64,000 bases of DNA, taken from an uncultured bacterium. Lineage in GTDB: Bacteria; Patescibacteriota; Minisyncoccia; Phycocordibacterales; UBA6065. The notes under the pieces are model-generated. The model saw only the letters and a program-made list of their open reading frames with translations. It ran no database searches and had not been told where the DNA came from. Both the position numbers and the translations under genes were made by a program. The DNA lies in assembly GCA_966243015.1 (NCBI GenBank), contig CBIMES010000002.1:48518-112517 (forward strand), given 5' to 3'. This document shows, piece by piece, positions 1,641 through 40,287 of the stretch. The stretch's first letter is position 1; every line of letters starts with the position of its first letter.

Positions 1641-2246
1641 TCACGCATGTCCCTTTCTGCGGCGAACCGCGACAAGGAGCGCGAGGGCGACGAGGCCGGC
1701 GAACAATCCGAACGAGGCTGGCTCAGGGACAGATGCCGACGGCGCAGATTGTCCCCACGCCATATTCGGATCAAGAGACGAGGTATACCACAGACCCACC
1801 TCCTGGACCCAAAGGCCCGAAGAGAAGTAGGACGGCACATAACCATCGCCGAGAGTAAACGAATACGGGGCATCCGGAACCGGGAGATGGGCAAAATACA
1901 GCTCATCGAATTGCCCATTTTCATCAACCGATTTGAAGGCGACATACAAATCAGGCCCGTAGAATGTGGCGTCCTTGTAGAACACAAGACTCGTCGTCCC
2001 TACCATCAGACTCCCCCCGACAAACGTCGGAACAAGGGGCGTGAGCTCACCATGCTCCTGGAAACCAGGAACGGCGAGATCGAAGTCCACGATGAAGGTC
2101 CCCGAATAGTCGGTGCCGACGGCGACCATGGGAAGATTGCTCTCCGTAACCTTGCCCGAGAACGAAAACGTCACAGGAGCCGCGAGGCTCGTGGACGGAA
2201 GGGCGCCCAGGAAGAACGCCATGACAAGTGCGATGATGTGTTTCAT
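1641..2246 (-). CDS. Secreted protein with a C-terminal PEP-CTERM sorting signal
   Basis: N-terminal signal peptide MKHIIALVMAFFLGALPSTSLA. C-terminus VPEPASFGLFAGLVALALLVAVRRRKGHA has the PEP motif, a TM helix and an Arg-rich tail. Paralogue of 12194..12820. Confidence 0.75.
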   Translation of the reverse strand: MKHIIALVMAFFLGALPSTSLAAPVTFSFSGKVTESNLPMVAVGTDYSGTFIVDFDLAVPGFQEHGELTPLVPTFVGGSLMVGTTSLVFYKDATFYGPDLYVAFKSVDENGQFDELYFAHLPVPDAPYSFTLGDGYVPSYFSSGLWVQEVGLWYTSSLDPNMAWGQSAPSASVPEPASFGLFAGLVALALLVAVRRRKGHA

Positions 2247-3077: not shown

Positions 3078-3151
3078 GCGCCCATAGCTCAGTTGGTTAG
3101 AGCACAGAGCTTATACCTCTGCGGTCCATGGTTCGAATCCATGTGGGCGCA
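3078..3151 (+). tRNA. tRNA-Ile with anticodon UAU (CCA not encoded)
   Basis: Cloverleaf: acceptor GCGCCCA/TGGGCGC, D-arm GCTC..GAGC, anticodon stem CAGAG/CTCTG with loop CTTATAC (positions 34-36 = TAT), T-arm CATGG-TTCGAAT-CCATG, discriminator A. Confidence 0.85.
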
Positions 3152-3330
3152 CACCAGACAGTCACGCCACGAAACAAAAAGACCCCGTGGTCGCACACGA
3201 GGCCTTGTAGAGGGTTACCGCAACCAAGAGAGTTATGCGTGGCACTTCTCTCTGAACATTAGTACGTTCGCCTTGGGCAAAACGCTTCACCGAAACAATA
3301 TTAGCAGAGGGAAATTTCGAACTGTCGATA

Positions 3331-5824: not shown

Positions 5825-6220
5825 GGGGATGACGGGCTTCGACACACGATTCCCTTCCCTCTGCGCGCGATAGAGCTTGAGTACCTCTGCAAACTGCTCA
5901 AACCATCAAATGCAAAATCTTCCGTTTCGCCGTATTTCGCGGCACGAGATTTCTCATTCGCTTACGCAATAGCCTAAGCGACATCGTCCTTCTGCGCGTC
6001 CGGCGCGGGAGACCGCGGTGTTATATACCCGGACTAGCTAACTCCCAGTTCCAGGGCGTCTAGCGAGACTCGCCGAAAGGCGGGATGGAAATCGGACGAG
6101 GCGCGTTTTGTCTCTTTTACAGCGCCCCGCCCTAAAGCCCTTACGGGCGAAAACTGACTACATCGCGTAGAACCATTGGGAAAGATCATGTGCACGCGCG
6201 TTCAACTCGCGCCATCTCCA
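5825..6220 (+). ncRNA. ssrA: tmRNA (ssrA), one-piece
   Basis: The 5' end GGGGATGACGGGCTTCGACA matches the tmRNA 5' consensus (GGGG.UG...GG.UUCGAC). The 3' end GCGCG-TTCAACT-CGCGC-CATCTCC-A forms a T-arm and a 7-bp acceptor stem with the 5' end, including the G3:U70 pair needed for alanylation. In-frame tag candidate ...(A)ARDFSFAYAIA-TAA at 5939-5977. Adjacent to smpB. Confidence 0.7.
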
Positions 6221-6226
6221 CAACAA

Positions 6227-12193: not shown

Positions 12194-12820
12194 ATGAAAC
12201 GCGTAATCGCTCTTATCGTGGCGTTCGTCGCCACTGCCCTGCCCCTCATATCGGCGCAGGCATACCGCTATGACTTTTCGGGGACTATCGAGGAATCGAG
12301 CTACCCGACAAGCCTCCCGACGGGCACCTTATTCTCCGGGCACATCACCGTTGACTGGGACCTCCTCACGGAAATAACCTTCTTCAATGATGCGGCTTCG
12401 TCGATACAGGCAACCATAACCGGGGGAGATCTTACGGTCGGCGGCTACGATTACGACTTTATCGTCGCCTCCGCGGGGTTTAGCTTCCAGATATACTTCG
12501 GACCGGCTGACCCTGATCTCCGGTTTGACGGGTTCAGGGATACCGGAGACTCGGGGCTCACCCTCCCCGGTGCAACCGAGCCGTTCTCCTACGTATCGGG
12601 AGGAGAGATTCCCCAAAGCCTCGTCCTTGGCGAATTTCTCGCCGGCGGAACCCTGGTGATCGCGGCAGTAGACCAGGACACCTGGGAAAGCGCCTCGGCG
12701 ACAGGTTCGATAGCCCTCACGTCGGCAACCGCCATACCCGAGCCCTCAGCGGCGGGCGCCTTGGCAGGGATCCTGGCCGCCATGATTGCCGTAGGCGTCA
12801 GGGACAGAAGAAGGGCCTAA
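12194..12820 (+). CDS. Secreted protein with a C-terminal PEP-CTERM sorting signal (paralogue of 1641..2246)
   Basis: Signal peptide MKRVIALIVAFVATALPLISAQA. C-terminus IPEPSAAGALAGILAAMIAVGVRDRRRA. The N-terminal region aligns with the 1641..2246 protein (FSG..ES..P....G...SG.I.VD.DL). Confidence 0.75.
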   Translation: MKRVIALIVAFVATALPLISAQAYRYDFSGTIEESSYPTSLPTGTLFSGHITVDWDLLTEITFFNDAASSIQATITGGDLTVGGYDYDFIVASAGFSFQIYFGPADPDLRFDGFRDTGDSGLTLPGATEPFSYVSGGEIPQSLVLGEFLAGGTLVIAAVDQDTWESASATGSIALTSATAIPEPSAAGALAGILAAMIAVGVRDRRRA

Positions 12821-27500: not shown

Positions 27501-27654
27501 GTATAGACGATAAATTACAGCTCGGGCGTTTGGACTATAGTCGCTAACACGACTTATTAAATGAAAAAACTAGGCTTAAACCTAGATTCCTTTACTTAGT
27601 GTCCATTCCGAAGCTAGTAAGGGCTATCCTAGCAGAAAACAAAACTAAGTCAAT

Positions 27655-27764
27655 GGGCTCGCTCTCGCCTCCCCGGAAAAGCACGCATAAAGCCCTGCTG
27701 GGCTTTTGCTCTGCTCGGCCCGGTCGGCCTGCGCAAGGCTTTTCCGGATAGGGAGAGACGAGCC
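27655..27764 (-). repeat. Structured inverted-repeat element, copy 2 (core at 27682-27738 is the reverse complement of the copy-1 core)
   Basis: Imperfect outer stem ggctcgctctcgcctccccgg / ccggatagggagagacgagcc around a core roughly 90% identical to the reverse complement of 7631-7686. Lies 150 nt upstream of rpsS on the minus strand. Confidence 0.65.
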
Positions 27765-28042: not shown

Positions 28043-28054
28043 ATGCGCGGCCAA

Positions 28055-28080
28055 GAAAAAGCCCCGTTTCTGGGGCTTTG
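28055..28080 (-). terminator. Terminator hairpin (aaagcccc / ggggcttt) for the 28094..28618 gene
   Basis: The minus strand reads aaagccccagaaacggggcttttt. Confidence 0.6.
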
Positions 28081-28093
28081 ATGGCCAAAGGGC

Positions 28094-28618
28094 CTAATTA
28101 TTAAAGACAATCTCCTGTCGGAAGGACATCAGGGGCGCCAAAGCGATCTTGCCTGAAGGCAGAACGACCTCGATTCCCTCGGAGGGCATAATGAAAATGA
28201 ACCCTCCCCTTTCATTCGAGTCCCGGTCGGCATCCGCGAGCAGCGTGAGAATCACAGCCTCGTCTTTCGATATCGAGAGGCCAAGTTCCTTGAATACGAG
28301 GAAGCTGTCCCCGTCTTTCTCGACGATGCCGTCAGGGATTGAGATTCGGGCCAGAGCCTTGCCGTCCTTATCCGCCAAGGAAAACCTCGACATGTTCTTG
28401 AGAACCTCGGGCTTTTTGTCTAGCCGGAACATGATCGAACTTACCGTCACACCCGATTCGAACGCACGAAGCGACAGACAGAACACGGGATTGGACCTTG
28501 TCCCCACGGAAATGCTGGTCCTCGACAATTCACCCTTGCGAACGGACAGATGTTCTTCAGGAAGCGCGTAACAAAAGGCTCCGAAAAAGAGCCCGATAAG
28601 GCAGAGTAGTTGTTTCAT
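28094..28618 (-). CDS. Secreted hypothetical protein (174 aa) with weak similarity to the 33175..33813 lipoprotein
   Basis: Signal peptide MKQLLCLIGLFFGAFCYA. LRAFESGV...LADKDG...IPDG segments loosely align with LRAFHSVSLVDADG... of the 33175..33813 protein. Confidence 0.55.
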   Translation of the reverse strand: MKQLLCLIGLFFGAFCYALPEEHLSVRKGELSRTSISVGTRSNPVFCLSLRAFESGVTVSSIMFRLDKKPEVLKNMSRFSLADKDGKALARISIPDGIVEKDGDSFLVFKELGLSISKDEAVILTLLADADRDSNERGGFIFIMPSEGIEVVLPSGKIALAPLMSFRQEIVFNN

Positions 28619-28715: not shown

Positions 28716-29132
28716 CTACCCCCTCTTTCTCCTGTAGCTCGCCTTTGACTCGCGGGTGATAGCGAGAATCGAGATGACGGCAATATACGAGGCGCTTACC
28801 TCTGGCGGCATCTTGTATTCGATATCGGTGAGGGCCTGTGCCGTGATCATGCCCATAATGAGAACCGTCCAGAGGATCGCATAGAGCTCGCCCGGGTGAA
28901 AGCCCTCGTGAACCCTGTGCCATCGACGAAACTCCTTTTCGGCACTGTAAATCGCCAAAGAGGCGCAATAGATACCCGCGATTGTCAGGATTACGTGATT
29001 CTCGTCGAGAATGTTGTGATTGAGAAAATCATAGATAATTGCAGCAAAGAAAGCGACCGTCCAGAAGTTGACCAAACCGCGCCAGAAGCCGAACTTGCCG
29101 ACCCTTTCTGACAGATTGAGGATGAATGCCAT
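28716..29132 (-). CDS. Small integral membrane protein (138 aa, 4 TM)
   Basis: Four hydrophobic helices and a basic C-terminus; no family assigned. Confidence 0.5.
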   Translation of the reverse strand: MAFILNLSERVGKFGFWRGLVNFWTVAFFAAIIYDFLNHNILDENHVILTIAGIYCASLAIYSAEKEFRRWHRVHEGFHPGELYAILWTVLIMGMITAQALTDIEYKMPPEVSASYIAVISILAITRESKASYRRKRG

Positions 29133-32030: not shown

Positions 32031-33020
32031 TTATCTGACGGGAATGCCATCCTTTAAAAGGGTGAAAAGGAAGGTCTTCTTGTAGTCGTAATGCGGAGCG
32101 AATACCGCGTCCGTGCCGACGGCCTCAAGCTTGAGCAGATAGGTCACGGTAACCCGGTATTTGGGTTCTGACGCCGTCCCGATTGATTCGACTCGCGTTG
32201 TGGGTGAGCCCAGAATCGTCGTTTCGACATTAACATTCCGAACAGCTAGGTCCTTTGACTTTACCAACCCTGCAGCCCGACCGCCATTTACCGTGGTCAC
32301 CCCCTCCCCTTGCAGGCTGGCGGATATGACCGTCGATGAGCTTTTCGCGTTACGAACATCAACCTTGACGACAAAATCGCGCTTGGAACGGGCGGGGATT
32401 TCCCAGTCCACGTCCTCAAATACGATTTCGTCATTCATCACGTCTGCCATGGCAATGAAATCATTACCCTGGTAGAGATAAGCCCTGGTTACCATCGCGG
32501 AACCGCCCGAAGTCTTAACCAGAATCCGAACATCATCGACAGTCCTCTTTTTAAGGGAAGAAAGCGTGAAGTTCAGAATCGGAACCAGGTCAACCTCATC
32601 ATCCTCTGCGCCGTAAGAGGCCACGGCAAAACTGGGACCAGTCTGCTGCGAGGCGTAAAGACAGAGATCGACGGGCACAGGCTTCTTCCAGAACTTGGAC
32701 GGAAGCCGGACGGCTGAACTGATTCGATTGACCCCAGTCGCGTGACGGCTTTCCAGAAACGGATCGGGCAGCTGCCAGGTCGGAGACCAGACAGCGCCTT
32801 CAAACGAAACCCGATAAACCTCCCTGCCGGGATTGACGACCTCATACGACACCGAGACGGGGAGCGTGATTTCATTGTTCTCCTGAAGCTTGAAATAGCC
32901 CGCAGGATAACCACCTACGACCACGCCCGAAGACGGGACGCTGTAAGAGACCTTGAGCTGGGCAAAAGCGTTCGTGACGCTGATAACAATGGCAAAGAAC
33001 AGGACGGGCAGTAGTTTCAT
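32031..33020 (-). CDS. Secreted hypothetical protein (329 aa), paralogue B of the inserted family
   Basis: Signal peptide MKLLPVLFFAIVISVTNAFA. The N-terminal domain SVPSSGVVVGGYPAGYFKLQENNEITLPV...PG aligns with residues ~325-380 of the 35862..37175 protein. Confidence 0.6.
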   Translation of the reverse strand: MKLLPVLFFAIVISVTNAFAQLKVSYSVPSSGVVVGGYPAGYFKLQENNEITLPVSVSYEVVNPGREVYRVSFEGAVWSPTWQLPDPFLESRHATGVNRISSAVRLPSKFWKKPVPVDLCLYASQQTGPSFAVASYGAEDDEVDLVPILNFTLSSLKKRTVDDVRILVKTSGGSAMVTRAYLYQGNDFIAMADVMNDEIVFEDVDWEIPARSKRDFVVKVDVRNAKSSSTVISASLQGEGVTTVNGGRAAGLVKSKDLAVRNVNVETTILGSPTTRVESIGTASEPKYRVTVTYLLKLEAVGTDAVFAPHYDYKKTFLFTLLKDGIPVR

Positions 33021-33131
33021 GTAGATATTCGGCCATCAGAGCGGAAGTGCTCTGGTGCGGCTTTCCTGTCTTTAATTATAGCATAAATCTATTAAAAGTC
33101 AATAATGACATAATCACCCCACCCGCCAAAT

Positions 33132-33159
33132 AAAAAGCCGCCAGCTTGAAGCTAGCGGC
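33132..33159 (-). terminator. Terminator for the 33175..33813 gene (gccgc[t/c]agc stem, tttttattt on the minus strand)
   Basis: Stem gccgccagc / gctagcggc with one mismatch, followed by a T-tract. Confidence 0.6.
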
Positions 33160-33174
33160 CGAGGACCACAGTCC

Positions 33175-33813
33175 TTATTTCTTGACCTTTTCGGAGATGA
33201 TAGTAACCACCTGCTTGAAGGGCAGCCCAGGGCCAGACACCTCCTTACCCTGACTGTCGATACAGACGACGCCCTCGGGACACATTTCAAAGACGTAACT
33301 GGCGCCATCGGGATTCGAGATGAAGGAATAACGCGGGCTCGCCTGGATACTGAGCCATCGCTTCGCATCCTTGGGAATCATGTATTTGAGACCCTTAAAG
33401 TCGAGCAGGAGCCTGTCCCCTTCCGTCCGGAACGACGTGTCGTCGACAGGCGTCTCGGACACGAATCGACCGTCGGCATCAACCAGCGAGACGGAGTGGA
33501 ATGCCCTGAGGAATCGCCACATGTCCTGGCCAACATCTATCCTGACGCTCGTGAGCACCATGTCCAGACCATGAGCCTCCACGCTAAACGACAACACCGG
33601 CGACGACTCGCCTTTCGGCGAAATGGCGGAACGCGCGAGCGACCCCTTCTCAACCGCAACCGACGTCGGGACCCGCAACTGGACCTCATAATCCCGCTTC
33701 GACTCGGGACGGCTCGCGCATGCGGTGAAAAACACGGACGCCGGGACAAGAAGGAGCACGAGCGAAGGAATCCCATCACACTTCCAGTGGAACTTTTTTA
33801 TAACCGATTTCAT
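33175..33813 (-). CDS. Putative lipoprotein (212 aa)
   Basis: Signal peptide with a lipobox-like LVPASVFFTAC. No assignable domain. Confidence 0.55.
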   Translation of the reverse strand: MKSVIKKFHWKCDGIPSLVLLLVPASVFFTACASRPESKRDYEVQLRVPTSVAVEKGSLARSAISPKGESSPVLSFSVEAHGLDMVLTSVRIDVGQDMWRFLRAFHSVSLVDADGRFVSETPVDDTSFRTEGDRLLLDFKGLKYMIPKDAKRWLSIQASPRYSFISNPDGASYVFEMCPEGVVCIDSQGKEVSGPGLPFKQVVTIISEKVKK

Positions 33814-33986
33814 GAGGTTCTAAACACCCAGGGCATATGCCACCCTCGACGCACCCGCGCCAAGAGCTTTGGGAATGATTCTGGAATCGAATTTGCCACA
33901 AACCAGCACAAAGTCAATTCGCGCAAGAAAAAAACCGCCTTTCGGTGGTTCTTTCTGTCTTTCGAATAAGTTCAGAGACACGAGAA

Positions 33987-34022
33987 AATAAGGACCACCG
34001 CCGAAGCGGTGGTCCTTATTTT
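33987..34022 (-). terminator. Rho-independent terminator immediately after rpsJ (12-bp stem aaggaccaccgc / gcggtggtcctt, then uuauuuuc)
   Basis: Perfect 12-bp inverted repeat abutting the rpsJ stop codon at 34023. Confidence 0.65.
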
Positions 34023-34388
34023 CTAAATCATCTTCACGTCGATGTTCACGCCTGAAGGCAATGACATGTTGGTGAGGGCCTCGATGATCTTCTGGTTAGG
34101 ATTCAAGATATCGATGAGTCGCTTGTGAACTCGCATCTCAAACTGCTCTCGCGCATTTTTGTAGACGAACGACGAGCGGTTCACCGTGTACTTCTTGATC
34201 TCCGTTGGGAGTGGCACCGGACCGAGCACCTCTACGTCGTAGCGGAGAGCGGTGTCGATGATCTGCTTTACCGACGCATCGAGAATCTTGCTCTCGTACG
34301 CTCGGACGCGGATTCGGAGTCGCGGAGTTGCGTCCGCTTTTGCCACCGCCTTCTTCTTAGTTGTTTTCTTTGTTTCTGCTACTGCCAT
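34023..34388 (-). CDS. rpsJ: 30S ribosomal protein S10 (with a Lys-rich N-terminal extension)
   Basis: LRIRVRAYESKILDASVKQIIDTA... Confidence 0.9.
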   Translation of the reverse strand: MAVAETKKTTKKKAVAKADATPRLRIRVRAYESKILDASVKQIIDTALRYDVEVLGPVPLPTEIKKYTVNRSSFVYKNAREQFEMRVHKRLIDILNPNQKIIEALTNMSLPSGVNIDVKMI

Positions 34389-34428
34389 ATAAGTGCTAGT
34401 CTACGTATTTCCTGCTTTTTAGCAAGTA

Positions 34429-35625
34429 TTACGCGATGATCTTGGTTACGACGCCTGCACCGACGGTCTTTCCACCCTCTCGGATGGTGAAGCGCTGCTT
34501 GTCCTCGAGAACGATCGGAGCGTGGAGCTTTACCTTGAAGGTAACGGTGTCTCCAGGCATAACCATCTCTACGCCAGGGGCGAGGGTAACCTCACCGGTA
34601 ACGTCAGTGGTTCGAACGTAGAACTGAGGCTTGTATCCGTTGAAGAATGGGGTGTGTCGTCCGCCCTCCTCCTTCTTGAGGATGAGAACCTCAGCCTCGA
34701 ACTCGGTGTGTGGAGTTACTGAGCCTGGCTTAGCGAGAACCTGACCTCGGTGTACGGCGTCCTTTGCGGTACCTCGGAGGAGAACTCCCGCGTTGTCACC
34801 TGCCATACCAGACTGGAGCTGCTTGTTGAACATCTCGATTCCGGTGATGGTGGTCTTGGTGGTGTCCTTGATACCAACGATCTCGACTTCCTCGCCAACC
34901 TTGATGGTACCGCGCTCGATTCGGCCGGTAACCACGGTTCCTCGACCCTCGATCGAGAAGATGTCCTCGATAGGCATGAGGAATGGCTTGTCGGTCTCTC
35001 GCTCTGGAAGAGGGATGTAGGTGTCGAGAGTAGACATGAGCTCCTTGATCTTCTTTGACCACTCGTCAGTGTTGTCGGCAGCCTCAAGAGCCTTGAGAGC
35101 TGAGCCGCGGATGACAGGAGTGTTTGCTCCGTCGAAGCCGTACTTGGTGAGGAGGTCTCGAACCTCGCCCTCGACGAGATCAATGAGATCCTTGTCCTCT
35201 ACTGCGTCGCACTTGTTAAGGAAGACGACCATTCGAGGTACTCCAACCTGCTTTGCGAGGAGGATGTGCTCTCGAGTCTGAGGCATAGGGCCGTCGATAG
35301 CGGATACCACGAGGATAGAGCCGTCCATCTGAGCGGCACCCGTGATCATGTTCTTGATGTAGTCAGCGTGACCTGGGGCGTCGATGTGAGCGTAATGTCG
35401 GGTATCTGACTCGTACTCAACGTGGGCGAGAGAGATGGTAACGACCTTCGATGCGTCTCGAACAGTACCGCCCTTCGCGATATCTGCGTACGCCTTGTTC
35501 TTTGCGAGACCGTCTCGAGCCTGTACCGCGAGGATCGCGGTGGTAAGGGTCGTCTTGCCGTGGTCAACGTGGCCGATAGTACCTACGTTAACGTGAGGCT
35601 TAGTTCGTGTGAATTCACCTGCCAT
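34429..35625 (-). CDS. tuf: Elongation factor Tu
   Basis: 398 aa with [18 protein letters not shown] and NKCD motifs. Confidence 0.97.
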
Positions 35626-35810
35626 AGTATTTTTGGTAAGTAATGAAGATGTACGCGCGAGATTGGCACATCCTCATGACCTACAAATTAATGTTCTAAG
35701 CTGTTAAATAATGCTTTTCCAACTGAAACCAATTGAAAAAGCGCGCAAAATGCGTACCCCGTATCATAGCAAAGTGAGAGAGGAAGTCAAACATTACCCT
35801 TCCCGACGAC

Positions 35811-35844
35811 AAGCCAAAAGCCGCCCGAGGCGGCTTTTGGCTTG
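35811..35844 (-). terminator. Terminator for 35862..37175 (15-bp stem aagccaaaagccgcc / ggcggcttttggctt)
   Basis: Perfect long inverted repeat after the stop codon. Confidence 0.65.
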
Positions 35845-35861
35845 AATGTGGTCAACGTGAG

Positions 35862-37175
35862 CTATCTGAGAGCGTTAACCAGCCTTACCAGATCCTCAAT
35901 GGCGAACGCAACCGAGGCGAGGCTGGAATGTGATTCGACGCTTGATGTCACCGGCAGGGTCTTCCAGACGGTGTTTGGGGAAGACGATGCAAGAACCGTC
36001 GCCTGGGCCCTGCCGTCAGAATCCATGTAGTTTATCTTCTCAAGCTCAACCTGATAGATACCGCTCGCGCCCGGAGACAGGAAAAACGTGTGATACACAG
36101 GAACCTTCACCTGATTGTTTTCCTGCACCTTAAAGGCGACGCCGCTTGGCAAACCTGACGTCACGACACCGACTGACGGCACCGAGAAATACGAGAGCGC
36201 GCCATCAACGGGGGTTTTTACGCCATTCCTATAGACCGAGAACACGAACGAGCCCGGCTGCGAGAACGAATAATCATCTTCCCTGGCAAGAATCGATACG
36301 TTAAAGGTTGCCCTTACCGTCGTGGTAGCGCCGAACTGTGTAGACATACCGACGTGTTTTTCAATCGACGGGGTGCCGACAAGAGAGAACTCCGGTCCCG
36401 CGCCAACGCTGTTCGGCACGGGAGCCACGGCAGACCTCGCAGCAGGCGCCTTGTCCGCAGATACAATACCCATGTATATATAGAGCTCGACAAGGTTAAA
36501 CAAACTCATGTTTGCGGGCGCGCCCAGGGCTATCTCCCGCGCCTGCTGAGCCTTGGCGGGGGTAATGATGCCTACGCCTATAAAAGTCTCCGCAAGATCA
36601 GTGGCTGCCTTGTTCTGGGCTTGCGGAGGGGTAGATGTTGCGACTGGGGCGCTTTCGACAATCGAGAAAGACCCGCTCTGCTTATATCCCGTGGCAGTGC
36701 TCAGATACACGATGTAGTCACTCGCCACAGGAGTCGACGTCGCGATCTTCCAAGAAAACGATCCCGCGCTTGAGACCTTGCCGCTCGCCACTGGATTGCC
36801 CACAGTCTTGGACAGGACATTTTTGGTTGGGCCCGTTGATTTTCGATACACCGCGAGGCCAAGGCTGTTATTCGAAGTCGTGAGACCAGAAACCTCCCAC
36901 GAGATAGTCACCGTGTCGCCAACTTTGTAAGCCTCTCCTCCTGCGGGAGCCAGCGAATTAATGACCGGCTTTGCGCTCAAGGACGGCGCAGGAGCAGGCT
37001 TGGCCACCGTACTGTTAAGCACGGGCTTCGCCACCACGGTCGCCTTAGCGGGTGTAGACACCTTGGTTGGCAGCACATTGCCCCGGATCATTGTCTGAGC
37101 AGAGGTTGCCGAGACCGAGAGACCACACACGAGAAGCACCGCCGAGACCGACGCGACCGCAATAACGTTCTTCAT
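35862..37175 (-). CDS. Secreted hypothetical protein (437 aa), paralogue A of the inserted family
   Basis: Signal peptide MKNVIAVASVSAVLLVCGLSVSATSA, Ser/Thr/Ala-rich. Its C-terminal domain SVPSVGVVTSGLPSGVAFKVQENNQVKVPV...PG is shared with the 32031..33020 protein. Confidence 0.6.
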   Translation of the reverse strand: MKNVIAVASVSAVLLVCGLSVSATSAQTMIRGNVLPTKVSTPAKATVVAKPVLNSTVAKPAPAPSLSAKPVINSLAPAGGEAYKVGDTVTISWEVSGLTTSNNSLGLAVYRKSTGPTKNVLSKTVGNPVASGKVSSAGSFSWKIATSTPVASDYIVYLSTATGYKQSGSFSIVESAPVATSTPPQAQNKAATDLAETFIGVGIITPAKAQQAREIALGAPANMSLFNLVELYIYMGIVSADKAPAARSAVAPVPNSVGAGPEFSLVGTPSIEKHVGMSTQFGATTTVRATFNVSILAREDDYSFSQPGSFVFSVYRNGVKTPVDGALSYFSVPSVGVVTSGLPSGVAFKVQENNQVKVPVYHTFFLSPGASGIYQVELEKINYMDSDGRAQATVLASSSPNTVWKTLPVTSSVESHSSLASVAFAIEDLVRLVNALR

Positions 37176-37266: not shown

Positions 37267-37294
37267 AGTATAGTCGAAATTTTGAAAAAGTCAA
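37267..37294 (-). promoter_or_regulatory. Sigma70-like promoter TTGACT-N16-TATACT for the inserted secreted-protein gene
   Basis: The minus strand reads ttgact ttttcaaaatttcgac tatact. It lies downstream of the fusA terminator. Confidence 0.5.
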
Positions 37295-39623: not shown

Positions 39624-40229
39624 CTATTTGTAGAGCTTGGCACACTGTCGACATGATCCTATCTCGCACGCAGCCCCGTCACCTGTTGTGTTGATAGGGT
39701 CAGCCCAGTAGAATTTACCCCAATAACCTCCCAGTACTGCGCACTGCGCGAACGTCGGTTGGCCTGCGGCTTCTTCAGGGATATATCCGATCTGGAAGCT
39801 GTCTGTGCCGTACGAACTCACATCAACCACGTTCCCATTCTTATCTGTGACGAGACCTGCGATGAGCGCCACGGGCGATGCGTAAATGTAAGCGTTTGCC
39901 TCGCGCGTAGGCACAGGATCAATTGGAACCTTAGCCATATAAGGCGCGAGCGCGGTGTTCAAAGCATCATTACCTTTGTGATTGACGGCACACGTCTGAC
40001 TCGACGTCATACCGAGACAGGCCCCTTTTGTAACAGGATACGATCCCCCATGATCCAAGGCATAGAGATAAAGGGCCTTCGATATCTGGTCCATATCGGC
40101 AACGCGTTTTGCGTTCCTCGCCTTAAGTCGCGCCGCGTTCAGGCTCGAGAGCACGACGCTCGACAGCAAAGCGATGATCGAAATGACAACAAGAAGTTCA
40201 ATGAGTGTGAAGCCCTCTCTGCGATTCAT
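39624..40229 (-). CDS. Type IV pilin-like (prepilin N-terminal methylation domain) protein
   Basis: Start placed at MNRREGFTLIELLVVISIIALLSSVVL. The upstream ATG lies inside the rpsG terminator hairpin. Cys-containing C-terminal domain. Confidence 0.7.
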   Translation of the reverse strand: MNRREGFTLIELLVVISIIALLSSVVLSSLNAARLKARNAKRVADMDQISKALYLYALDHGGSYPVTKGACLGMTSSQTCAVNHKGNDALNTALAPYMAKVPIDPVPTREANAYIYASPVALIAGLVTDKNGNVVDVSSYGTDSFQIGYIPEEAAGQPTFAQCAVLGGYWGKFYWADPINTTGDGAACEIGSCRQCAKLYK

Positions 40230-40255
40230 ATGAATCGATGATACCACCGTTGAAA

Positions 40256-40287
40256 CAGCAAAAGCCACCATGTGGTGGCTTTTGCTG
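40256..40287 (-). terminator. Perfect 15-bp palindromic hairpin after rpsG (cagcaaaagccacca / tggtggcttttgctg)
   Basis: Seen directly in the sequence. The T-run is short (ttt), so it may be only a partial terminator. Confidence 0.5.

Follow-up and report, generated by a model that had tools for sequence, protein, structure and literature searches.

The DNA analyzed here, which we refer to as the window, is a 64,000-nucleotide (nt) stretch of contig CBIMES010000002.1 from an uncultured member of the Patescibacteriota, here placed in the Paceibacterota (Parcubacteria). On the basis of profile comparisons, structure models and gene order, we propose that four genes within its ribosomal protein cluster probably encode one modular family of secreted cell-envelope proteins with a structural or adhesive role at the surface, expressed from transcription units of their own at hot spots of insertion. 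Bacteria of the candidate phyla radiation (CPR, Patescibacteria) rely on contact with other cells, and most of their surface proteins are unannotated. We name the four proteins by their lengths in amino acids (aa) as p437, p329, p212 and p174; their open reading frames (ORFs) are confirmed on the minus strand at the positions given in Table 1, and the peptides quoted in the initial annotation are present in them. The str/S10/spc ribosomal supercluster, likewise on the minus strand of the window, carries six additional genes, placed in parentheses in the following order: S12, S7, (pilin-like, 215 aa), EF-G, (p437), EF-Tu, S10, (p212), (p329), L3, L4, L23, L2, (p138), (p174), S19, L22, S3, L16 and onward.

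The initial annotation had read the four proteins as paralogs, citing a ~55-aa segment that lies towards the C-terminus of p437 but towards the N-terminus of p329, and a weak collinear similarity between p174 and p212. The shared segment is real; over 51 aa, p437 aa 330-379 and p329 aa 26-74 are 45% identical in pairwise BLASTP (E 1e-8), and the match stays at ~1e-6 when searched against all 212 ORFs of the window. Nor is the segment a generic low-complexity region, as its p329 copy corresponds to positions 70-120 of a 149-position hidden Markov model (HMM) made from five homologues of the domain that we call A (E 4e-12). The similarity between p174 and p212 is indeed collinear, but it is not weak, since BLASTP aligns the two proteins over their full length with 29% identity across 191 columns (E 9e-15); of the motifs first cited for it, the pair 'SLADKDG / SLVDADG' aligns, whereas the two LRAF strings do not and are coincidental. 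BLASTP detects no direct similarity between the p437/p329 pair and the p174/p212 pair. The two are joined at the profile level only, where the domain of p212 and p174 (B) matches the central domain of p329 (X) with an hhalign probability of 98.4% (E 6.9e-15, 104 columns) when deep alignments are used, and where the two negative controls, A compared with B and A compared with X, reveal none. With shallow alignments the B to X comparison is equivocal (65% probability), and it becomes decisive only with the deep ones. Against the deep B HMM, p212 aa 51-206 and p174 aa 23-173 score E 5e-41 and E 2e-33, and canonical B domains align with each of them along the entire length; p329 aa 129-283 match the X HMM at E 5e-43, and p437 aa 261-406 match a complete A domain at E 1e-40. 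Because B and X are homologous, and p212 and p174 are B domains, a single family supplies the modules of all four window proteins. The proposal of a single paralogous family is therefore upheld, through shared domains rather than overall collinearity.

The shared segment lies at opposite ends of p437 and p329 because p329, by its alignments, is a circular permutant, in which the signal peptide is followed by the second half of A, a linker of ~45 aa, the X domain and the first half of A. The 'QENN' segment that drew attention at first is thus refined to the second half of a ~150-aa immunoglobulin (Ig)-like domain, displaced in p329 by the permutation. The rearrangement can be followed in the closest related locus (L006; metagenome-assembled genome JBAZUA01, 'Candidatus Paceibacterota bacterium SO_2017_GW1_216'), whose S10 is 99% identical to that of the window and which encodes a 1135-aa secreted protein with X (aa ~89-265) followed by A (aa ~244-390). 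In this protein aa 89-265 are matched by p329 aa 134-307, which comprise X and the first strands of A (E 7e-12, 52.0 bits), and aa 296-332, in the second half of A, are matched by p329 aa 24-59 (E 7e-6, 33.1 bits), so that the order is swapped. Once the C-terminus of p329 is re-joined to its mature N-terminus, one alignment of 250 aa extends across the junction without a break (69.3 bits, E 1e-17). When mature p329 is shifted circularly and scored against a canonical X-A HMM, the native order reaches 126 bits and covers HMM positions 13-221, and starts placed in the linker (aa ~96-126) lift the score to a plateau of 177 bits with the HMM covered in full (positions 13-293). In the alignment, the cut in p329 falls within an indel-rich loop in the middle of A.

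Four homologues (P0006, P0007, P0008 and P0024) are collinear with p329 over its full length at 26-36% BLASTP identity. The C-terminal end '...F.F..L(K/R)(D/N)G..V(R/E/Q)' is common to all of them, and the mature N-terminus '..PS.GVV' to P0006, P0008 and P0024, while P0007 as called starts ~20 residues further in. The conservation of the same ends at such low identity argues that the permutant is an old and maintained subfamily, not a broken gene. Most probably, it would have arisen by tandem duplication of an X-A unit with subsequent loss of both ends. These observations bear on whether the window ORFs, and p329, p212 and p174 especially, are functionless fragments decaying from a formerly intact B-X-A gene. 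The adjacent p212 and p329 do hold B, X and A between them, which is the canonical content minus the wall-binding domain, and the inserted regions turn over quickly, p212 and p329 being absent from L006 and L007. We nonetheless consider decay very improbable, given that the permuted architecture is kept at full length with its signal peptide intact in four lineages, that the p329 model is confident and complete, that p212 and p174 hold complete B domains, that p329 lies between a promoter close to the consensus and a clean terminator, with a clean terminator hairpin also present behind p212, and that p437 is under purifying selection (see below).

Structure models agree with the permuted reading. 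For p329, AlphaFold2 was supplied with 56 further alignment rows, made up of the four permuted homologues and natural sub-segments, and returned an all-beta model with a mean predicted local distance difference test score (pLDDT) of 85.9 and a predicted template modelling score (pTM) of 0.76. The half-domains at the termini are modelled at pLDDT 90-95 (N-terminal, including the shared segment, whose modelling the initial annotation had proposed) and 80-95 (C-terminal), low values being confined to the signal peptide and linker. The A domain of p437 (aa 256-437; pLDDT 88.8, pTM 0.79) is modelled with eleven strands and a C-terminal helix, and its strand order is that of the C-terminal strands of p329 followed by the N-terminal ones. 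Within a single p329 molecule, the two A halves would most likely come together again and restore the sandwich. Fold matches are to generic adhesin, pilin, cohesin and Ig-type sandwiches only; Foldseek against the PDB gives only low-TM matches, to integrin legs and SdrG, and a PDB sequence search returns no chain at E<=1. The initial annotation had seen no catalytic motif in these proteins, and this stands, as there is no catalytic Pfam or NCBIfam match and the folds found are beta-sandwiches only.

A half-domain at each end of p329 is also what would be expected of a fibre or pilus subunit whose split A is completed in trans, in a run-away domain swap akin to donor-strand exchange where the N-terminal half of each molecule enters the C-terminal half of the next, with the B-only p212 and p174 as base, cap or anchor. 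CPR bacteria build Ig-like Pam pili by donor-strand exchange (bioRxiv 10.64898/2026.03.03.709456), and the ribosomal cluster of the window includes a pilin-like gene. The Pam pilins, however, are reported mainly from other clades, Saccharimonadia and Microgenomatia, beside ATP synthase genes (bioRxiv 10.64898/2026.03.03.709456). The p329 monomer model is compact and confident, its flexible 45-aa linker suits an intramolecular permutant, no chaperone-like or usher-like gene is found as a neighbour, and no PDB chain matches, all of which make such a fibre quite unlikely. That the split permuted form is functional in itself, with p329 as a head-to-tail trans polymer or with p212 and p329 as a non-covalent wall protein made from two genes, we likewise hold to be unlikely. 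If it were so, the p329 polymer would be a new, chaperone-free route to a surface fibre, the membrane lipid anchor of p212 would replace the peptidoglycan-binding domain in the two-gene version, and in either form the ribosomal-cluster sites would act as rapidly exchangeable 'surface-antigen slots' in Paceibacterota.

The preferred reading, of one modular envelope family, is extended by the relatives of p329 in metagenomes, where the initial annotation had suggested that the family be sought. An exhaustive phmmer scan with p329 over 1.84 billion cluster representatives (E<=1e-3) yields 95 proteins, namely the query itself (P0001) and 94 relatives, each of which represents a 50%-identity cluster. 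When our three local HMMs, for A, X and B, are mapped onto these matches, about fifty relatives of 600-680 aa show the fixed order B, X, A, and PG_binding_1 is found N-terminal of B in seven of the eight canonical relatives tested with Pfam. The commonest form is thus a signal peptide, PG_binding_1, B, X and A; arrangements with multiple copies of A and X also occur (for example P0041, P0044 and P0098), and PG_binding_1 is present in a 422-aa B-domain protein of L006. A helix motif, 'V(E/D)LFI.LGII.ADKA.AAR', is specific to the family and follows the signal peptide in many members, by regular expression directly so in P0005, P0022, P0043, P0056 and the 422-aa protein of L006. No Pfam model matches the B, X or A domains of the four window proteins and eight canonical relatives, and no NCBIfam model matches the window proteins and two canonical members; sub-threshold library matches to Zona_CL2, DUF7137, CbiM and a NikL-family model were disregarded as below cut-off. 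The three modules thus appear, from their profiles, to form an uncurated family that is so far seen in metagenomic sequences of CPR/Paceibacterota type. Word-indexed searches are nearly blind to it: p329 retrieves itself only, p437 three relatives and the B profile six proteins. Shallow profiles of two or three sequences, run over 80 related loci, matched L006 only, and a metagenome scan with the permuted family gave two loci, one of them already known.

In the mechanism that we propose, the common wall form would be exported by the Sec route and then held on the cell wall by PG_binding_1, and in the present genome the modules would be spread over four separately transcribed genes. Here, p212 would be a lipid-anchored B and p174 a free secreted B, p437 would join a Kre9-like Ig domain and helix motifs to A and a C-terminal helix, and p329 would be the permuted X-A. 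Most likely, the proteins serve as structural or adhesive surface parts of an ultra-small and probably host-attached bacterium. We infer this surface role because it fits the fold class, the lack of a catalytic signature, the fast divergence of the genes and the lifestyle of the clade; indeed, the surface genes of the window diverge much faster than their ribosomal neighbours.

Several points weigh against this reading. The adhesion or scaffold role is drawn from fold class and architecture, and peptidoglycan-binding domains also occur on wall hydrolases. PG_binding_1 (PF01471) has no Pfam match at E<=1 in any of the four window proteins; p212 may be lipid-anchored, and the other three have no recognized anchor. 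The signal peptides and the lipobox were called by eye: all four N-termini have a charged and then a hydrophobic stretch, as is typical for the Sec route, with AXA-like sites and a crude hydropathy score of 2.6-2.9, and the p212 lipobox (VFFTA-C32) fits the bacterial lipoprotein pattern [LVI..][ASTVI][GAS]C by inspection. The intramolecular pairing of the two A halves in p329 is read from pLDDT, pTM and the matching strand order rather than from a contact map. Finally, the C-terminal segment of p329 taken alone matches the A HMM weakly (positions 19-61, conditional E 0.019), and the match is made convincing only by the L006 alignment and by the permuted homologues, whose corresponding segments match positions ~4-61 at 2e-4 (P0006), 3e-7 (P0007) and 9e-8 (P0008).

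The presence of peptidoglycan-binding domains in the family also raises the idea that its members belong, as accessory or substrate-binding components, to enzymes that degrade cell walls or glycans on the host envelope. PG_binding_1 and sandwiches resembling cohesins or carbohydrate-binding modules often go with hydrolases, and the source of P0101, which was matched in the search with the B domain, gives it the name 'peptidoglycan hydrolase-like protein with peptidoglycan-binding domain'. That name, however, reflects the peptidoglycan-binding domain only. With no catalytic domain found by Pfam in the four window proteins and eight canonical proteins, nor by NCBIfam in the window proteins and two canonical ones, we regard an enzymatic accessory role as distinctly improbable.

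The p437 protein shows how the A module can be combined with others. It consists of a signal peptide, a Kre9_KNH Ig-like domain, two 'LGIIxxDKAxxAR' helix motifs, a complete A and a C-terminal amphipathic helix. The tail helix (ASVAFAIEDLVRLVNALR) is conserved in P0003, P0004, P0005 and the L006 1135-aa protein, and could be a signal for anchoring or oligomerization. The homologues P0003, P0004 and P0005 are 74%, 70% and 34% identical to p437. In L097, L098 and L099, P0003 or P0005 lies immediately upstream of tuf, and L006 also has a p437-type gene there; the 1135-aa secreted protein of L006 is encoded between EF-G and EF-Tu. Between p437 and P0003 the dN/dS ratio is 0.11, with a dN of 0.21 against 0.05-0.06 for EF-G and S7 (~4x); the ratio indicates purifying selection on a real gene.

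The initial annotation had further reasoned that placement inside highly expressed operons makes these proteins abundant. The placement in the ribosomal cluster is borne out; the reasoning from it is not, because the inserted genes are flanked by promoter-like and terminator-like signals of their own, so that operon read-through as a cause of high expression is not supported. Near-consensus promoters precede p329, p437, EF-Tu and S19, and hairpin terminators or terminator-like hairpins follow S10, p212, p329 and p174 (Table 1). The terminators after p212 and p329 have GGCCGCTAGCTT in common, which occurs nowhere else in the window. Neither the gathering nor the E-value mode of Rfam finds an RNA element in the intergenic regions. 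From these signals the S10 operon appears to be split into separate units, with read-through into the inserted genes unlikely. Abundance of the four proteins is possible, given the quality of the promoters and by analogy with metatranscriptomes of other Paceibacteria. Upstream of S19, a non-coding leader of ~245 nt (window 27501-27745, minus strand) is 84.6% identical to L006 15804-16043, and outside this leader the remaining L2|S19 gap differs between the window and L006. A hairpin-plus-promoter piece of ~60 nt in the leader resembles the S10-L3 intergenic sequence of L006 and a stretch of L010.

The sites at which these genes lie recur in related genomes. Our comparison set consists of the best 80 S10 loci, with record titles of CPR type (Paceibacterota, Parcubacteria, Yonath-, Taylor-, Kaiser-, Nomurabacteria etc.), many generic 'uncultured Candidatus Saccharibacteria' labels and one exception titled as a Methanobacteriota archaeon. 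We surveyed gaps in 75 related Paceibacterota loci, counting a gap as large from 400 nt upward. The EF-G|EF-Tu gap is large in 46/46 loci (median 1954 nt), so that fusA and tuf are never adjacent in the surveyed loci, and the L2|S19 gap is large in 28/45 (median 837 nt). Large gaps are also seen at S7|EF-G (15/31 loci; median 384 nt), S10|L3 (10/76; 73 nt) and EF-Tu|S10 (4/77; 160 nt), and every other junction has them in 0-1 loci, with median gaps of 21-91 nt. EF-G|EF-Tu and L2|S19 are therefore general insertion hot spots in the str/S10 cluster of Paceibacterota. The cargo is mixed and includes toxin-antitoxin-like pairs, membrane proteins that resemble glycosyltransferases, L10/L12, and large secreted proteins in which PG_binding_1, Kre9_KNH or TIG domains occur; the L10 and L7/L12 genes lie inside the L2|S19 gap in L034, L056 and L082. 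Proteins that bear A, X or B occur in gaps of L006, L018 and L066. Permuted p329-type genes stand just after S10 in three of five independent contexts, including L088-L090 (26% identity) and L091 (35%), and permuted P0008 and P0006/L095 and canonical P0009 and P0012 lie outside those ribosomal sites. Between L091 and the window, EF-G is 90% and S10 99% identical, and the p329 homologue merely 35%. Literature queries on CPR ribosomal operons and surface proteins returned mostly nothing on insertions in the S10 cluster. Specific targeting of secreted proteins to the gaps is not claimed, as an apparent excess of signal-peptide-like ORFs (27% vs 14%) was biased by unmasked flanking genes of the spc operon; after masking of these genes the difference (27% vs 19%, with a crude predictor) is marginal (p = 0.047).

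Such recurrence might mean that the placement is itself functional, with envelope proteins coupled to ribosome synthesis and hence growth rate, or acting on translation. It is true that positions are kept despite 26-36% identity, as for the p329-type genes after S10 and for the p437-type genes that precede tuf in four loci besides the window (L006, L097, L098 and L099), and that all six inserted genes of the window cluster encode envelope proteins. Shared ancestry of the insertion alone would explain the synteny, however, and promoters and strong terminators of their own accompany the genes. Family members also occur outside ribosomal clusters (P0009 and P0012, canonical; P0008 and P0006/L095, permuted), the gap cargo in related genomes is very mixed, the enrichment in secreted proteins is marginal, and signal peptides speak against a cytoplasmic role. 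We regard functional placement as improbable, and none of the rival explanations, whether fibre, ribosome coupling, decay or hydrolase accessory, is favoured by the present data.

The positions of the features discussed above are collected in Table 1. Among the remaining inserted genes, p138 has no Pfam family above its cut-off, and its homologue in the L2|S19 gap of L006 (14734-15156) is 74% identical. It adjoins a B-domain protein in both the window and L006, in opposite gene order, and the two may work together as a pair. In the EF-G|EF-Tu gap, another family of secreted proteins of ~330 aa, with the N-terminal motif '...SL.ALRAYA...' and no Pfam match, is found at L007:7542-8522, L091:6820-7848 and L099:5921-6949, and a 'CP.GY.CTP' cysteine motif stands directly after the signal peptide in large secreted proteins of L011, L050, L058 and L066, of which the L050 protein carries PG_binding_1. 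Elsewhere in the window, PEP-CTERM-like sorting tails, unexpected in a CPR genome, end two signal-peptide ORFs (12194-12820, plus strand, ...IPEPSAAGALAGILAAMIAVGVRDRRRA; 1641-2246, minus strand, ...VPEPASFGLFAGLVALALLVAVRRRKGHA), and a tmRNA gene at 5825-6223 (plus strand) encodes the tag peptide AKSSVSPYFAARDFSFAYAIA. A tRNA-Ile gene at 3078-3152 (plus strand) has the unusual anticodon TAT (UAU); in most bacteria AUA is read by a lysidine-modified CAU tRNA.

Table 1. Positions of genes, domains and predicted transcription signals in the window.
Feature	Position	Strand	Remarks
p437	35862..37175	-	Secreted 437-aa protein between EF-G and EF-Tu
Kre9/KNH-like Ig-like domain of p437, aa 77-172	36660..36947	-	Pfam PF10342, E 7.7e-7, 30.2 bits (gathering cut-off 24.6)
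Two helix-motif copies in p437, aa ~196-250	36426..36590	-	ETFIGVGIITPAKAQQAR, VELYIYMGIVSADKAPAAR; regular-expression motif
Complete A domain of p437, aa 261-407	35955..36395	-	Ig-like beta-sandwich; A HMM and model
C-terminal tail of p437	35865..35918	-	SLASVAFAIEDLVRLVNALR; predicted amphipathic helix, aa 426-436 in the model
p329	32031..33020	-	Secreted 329-aa protein between S10 and L3; circular permutant of the X-A module
Second half of A in p329, aa 21-80	32781..32960	-	'QENN' segment, directly after the signal peptide
Linker of p329, aa 81-125	32646..32780	-	Connects the original C-terminus of A with the original N-terminus of X; pLDDT 53-70
X domain of p329, aa 126-284	32169..32645	-	Cohesin/Ig-like beta-sandwich homologous to B; X HMM
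First half of A in p329, aa 285-329	32034..32168	-	C-terminal; aligns contiguously after X with the start of A in the L006 1135-aa protein
p212	33175..33813	-	Predicted lipoprotein, lipobox VFFTA-C32; one B domain, aa 51-206 (nt 33196-33663)
p174	28094..28618	-	Between L2 and S19; signal peptide and one B domain, aa 23-173 (nt 28100-28552)
p138	28716..29132	-	Small protein that spans the membrane several times; inserted in the L2|S19 gap together with p174
Type IV pilin-like protein	39624..40271	-	Between S7 and EF-G; N_methyl motif 'FTLIELLVV', PF07963; context, outside the B/X/A family
Predicted promoter of p329	33075..33102	-	TTGACT, 16-nt spacer, TG-n-TATAAT (TGcTATAAT); 11/12 consensus matches
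Promoter-like site upstream of p437	37267..37294	-	TTGACT, 16-nt spacer, TATACT
Promoter-like site of the S19-L22-S3 unit	27626..27653	-	Within the ~245-nt leader conserved with L006
Hairpin and T-run terminator directly after p212	33136..33160	-	11-bp stem
Hairpin and T-run terminator after p329, before L3	31991..32016	-	11-bp stem, 9 GC pairs
Terminator-like hairpin directly after S10	33994..34010	-	Visible stem longer: GGACCACCGC-TTCG-GCGGTGGTCC, then TTATTTTC
Terminator-like hairpin and T-run after p174	28051..28080	-	AGCCCCAGAAACGGGGCTTTTTCTTGG; read from the sequence, not listed by the scanner

These results describe a family of 94 detected relatives with three new sandwich modules, which links wall-binding proteins to small stand-alone derivatives, and within it a natural circular permutation, kept over long evolutionary time, that makes an Ig-like domain discontinuous. 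They also suggest that the 'universal' str/S10 cluster of Paceibacterota is not one operon and is broken at a few hot-spot junctions, which bears on genome annotation, on the use of ribosomal synteny in binning and phylogeny, and on finding fast-evolving genes for host interaction. Ig-like surface proteins, peptidoglycan-binding anchors and circular permutation were already known; the family with its uncurated B/X and A modules, the conserved permutation with its discontinuous Ig domain and the fixed insertion hot spots in str/S10 are new. No established view is overturned, and the biological role is the one that we infer above.

Among known systems, the family resembles in domain make-up the wall-associated surface proteins in which an N-terminal PF01471 domain precedes Ig-like repeats. 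These include proteins of cultured Paceibacteria enrichments, where secreted proteins with peptidoglycan-binding and Ig-like domains are among the most expressed signal-peptide genes (PMC10936435). The canonical relatives share with these a signal peptide, PG_binding_1 and three sandwich modules, come from the same clade and are non-catalytic, whereas the four window proteins lack the peptidoglycan-binding domain, and neither Pfam nor NCBIfam has a model that fits the B/X or A modules. The Kre9/KNH domain (PF10342) is above its cut-off in p437 and recurs in EF-G|EF-Tu gap proteins of L015 and L018, but it is a single module of p437, with no Pfam match in p329, p212 or p174. Cohesins and Ig-like adhesins (MSCRAMM SdrG, Esp, Bap, CLIPPER) share the fold at a sequence identity of just 6-15%. 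The window proteins differ from these in having no dockerin partner and no SLH or LysM domain, and they show no sequence-profile match to cohesin (PF00963); by inspection, the four sequences contain neither the LPXTG motif nor the C-terminal transmembrane segment of sortase-anchored proteins.

Pam and chaperone-usher pili come closer in some respects, in that the Pam pilins are Sec-exported, abundant Ig-like surface proteins specific to CPR bacteria, and the concept of an incomplete Ig fold that takes its missing strand from elsewhere is near to the split domain of p329. They differ in clade and gene neighbourhood; the window proteins have no solved chain related by sequence and no chaperone genes nearby, and their models are complete sandwiches, that of p329 as a self-complete monomer. 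The circular permutants already known include swaposin and saposin, concanavalin A versus favin, bacterial beta-glucanases and the C2 domain topologies. As in these, the segments of p329 are collinear only after rotation, the new ends fall in a surface loop, and an origin by duplication and truncation is plausible. The permutation of p329 differs in that it spans two domains, with the halves of an Ig-like domain at the termini and a whole X between them, and in that a conserved subfamily has the permuted form, with its genes often at one fixed site behind S10.

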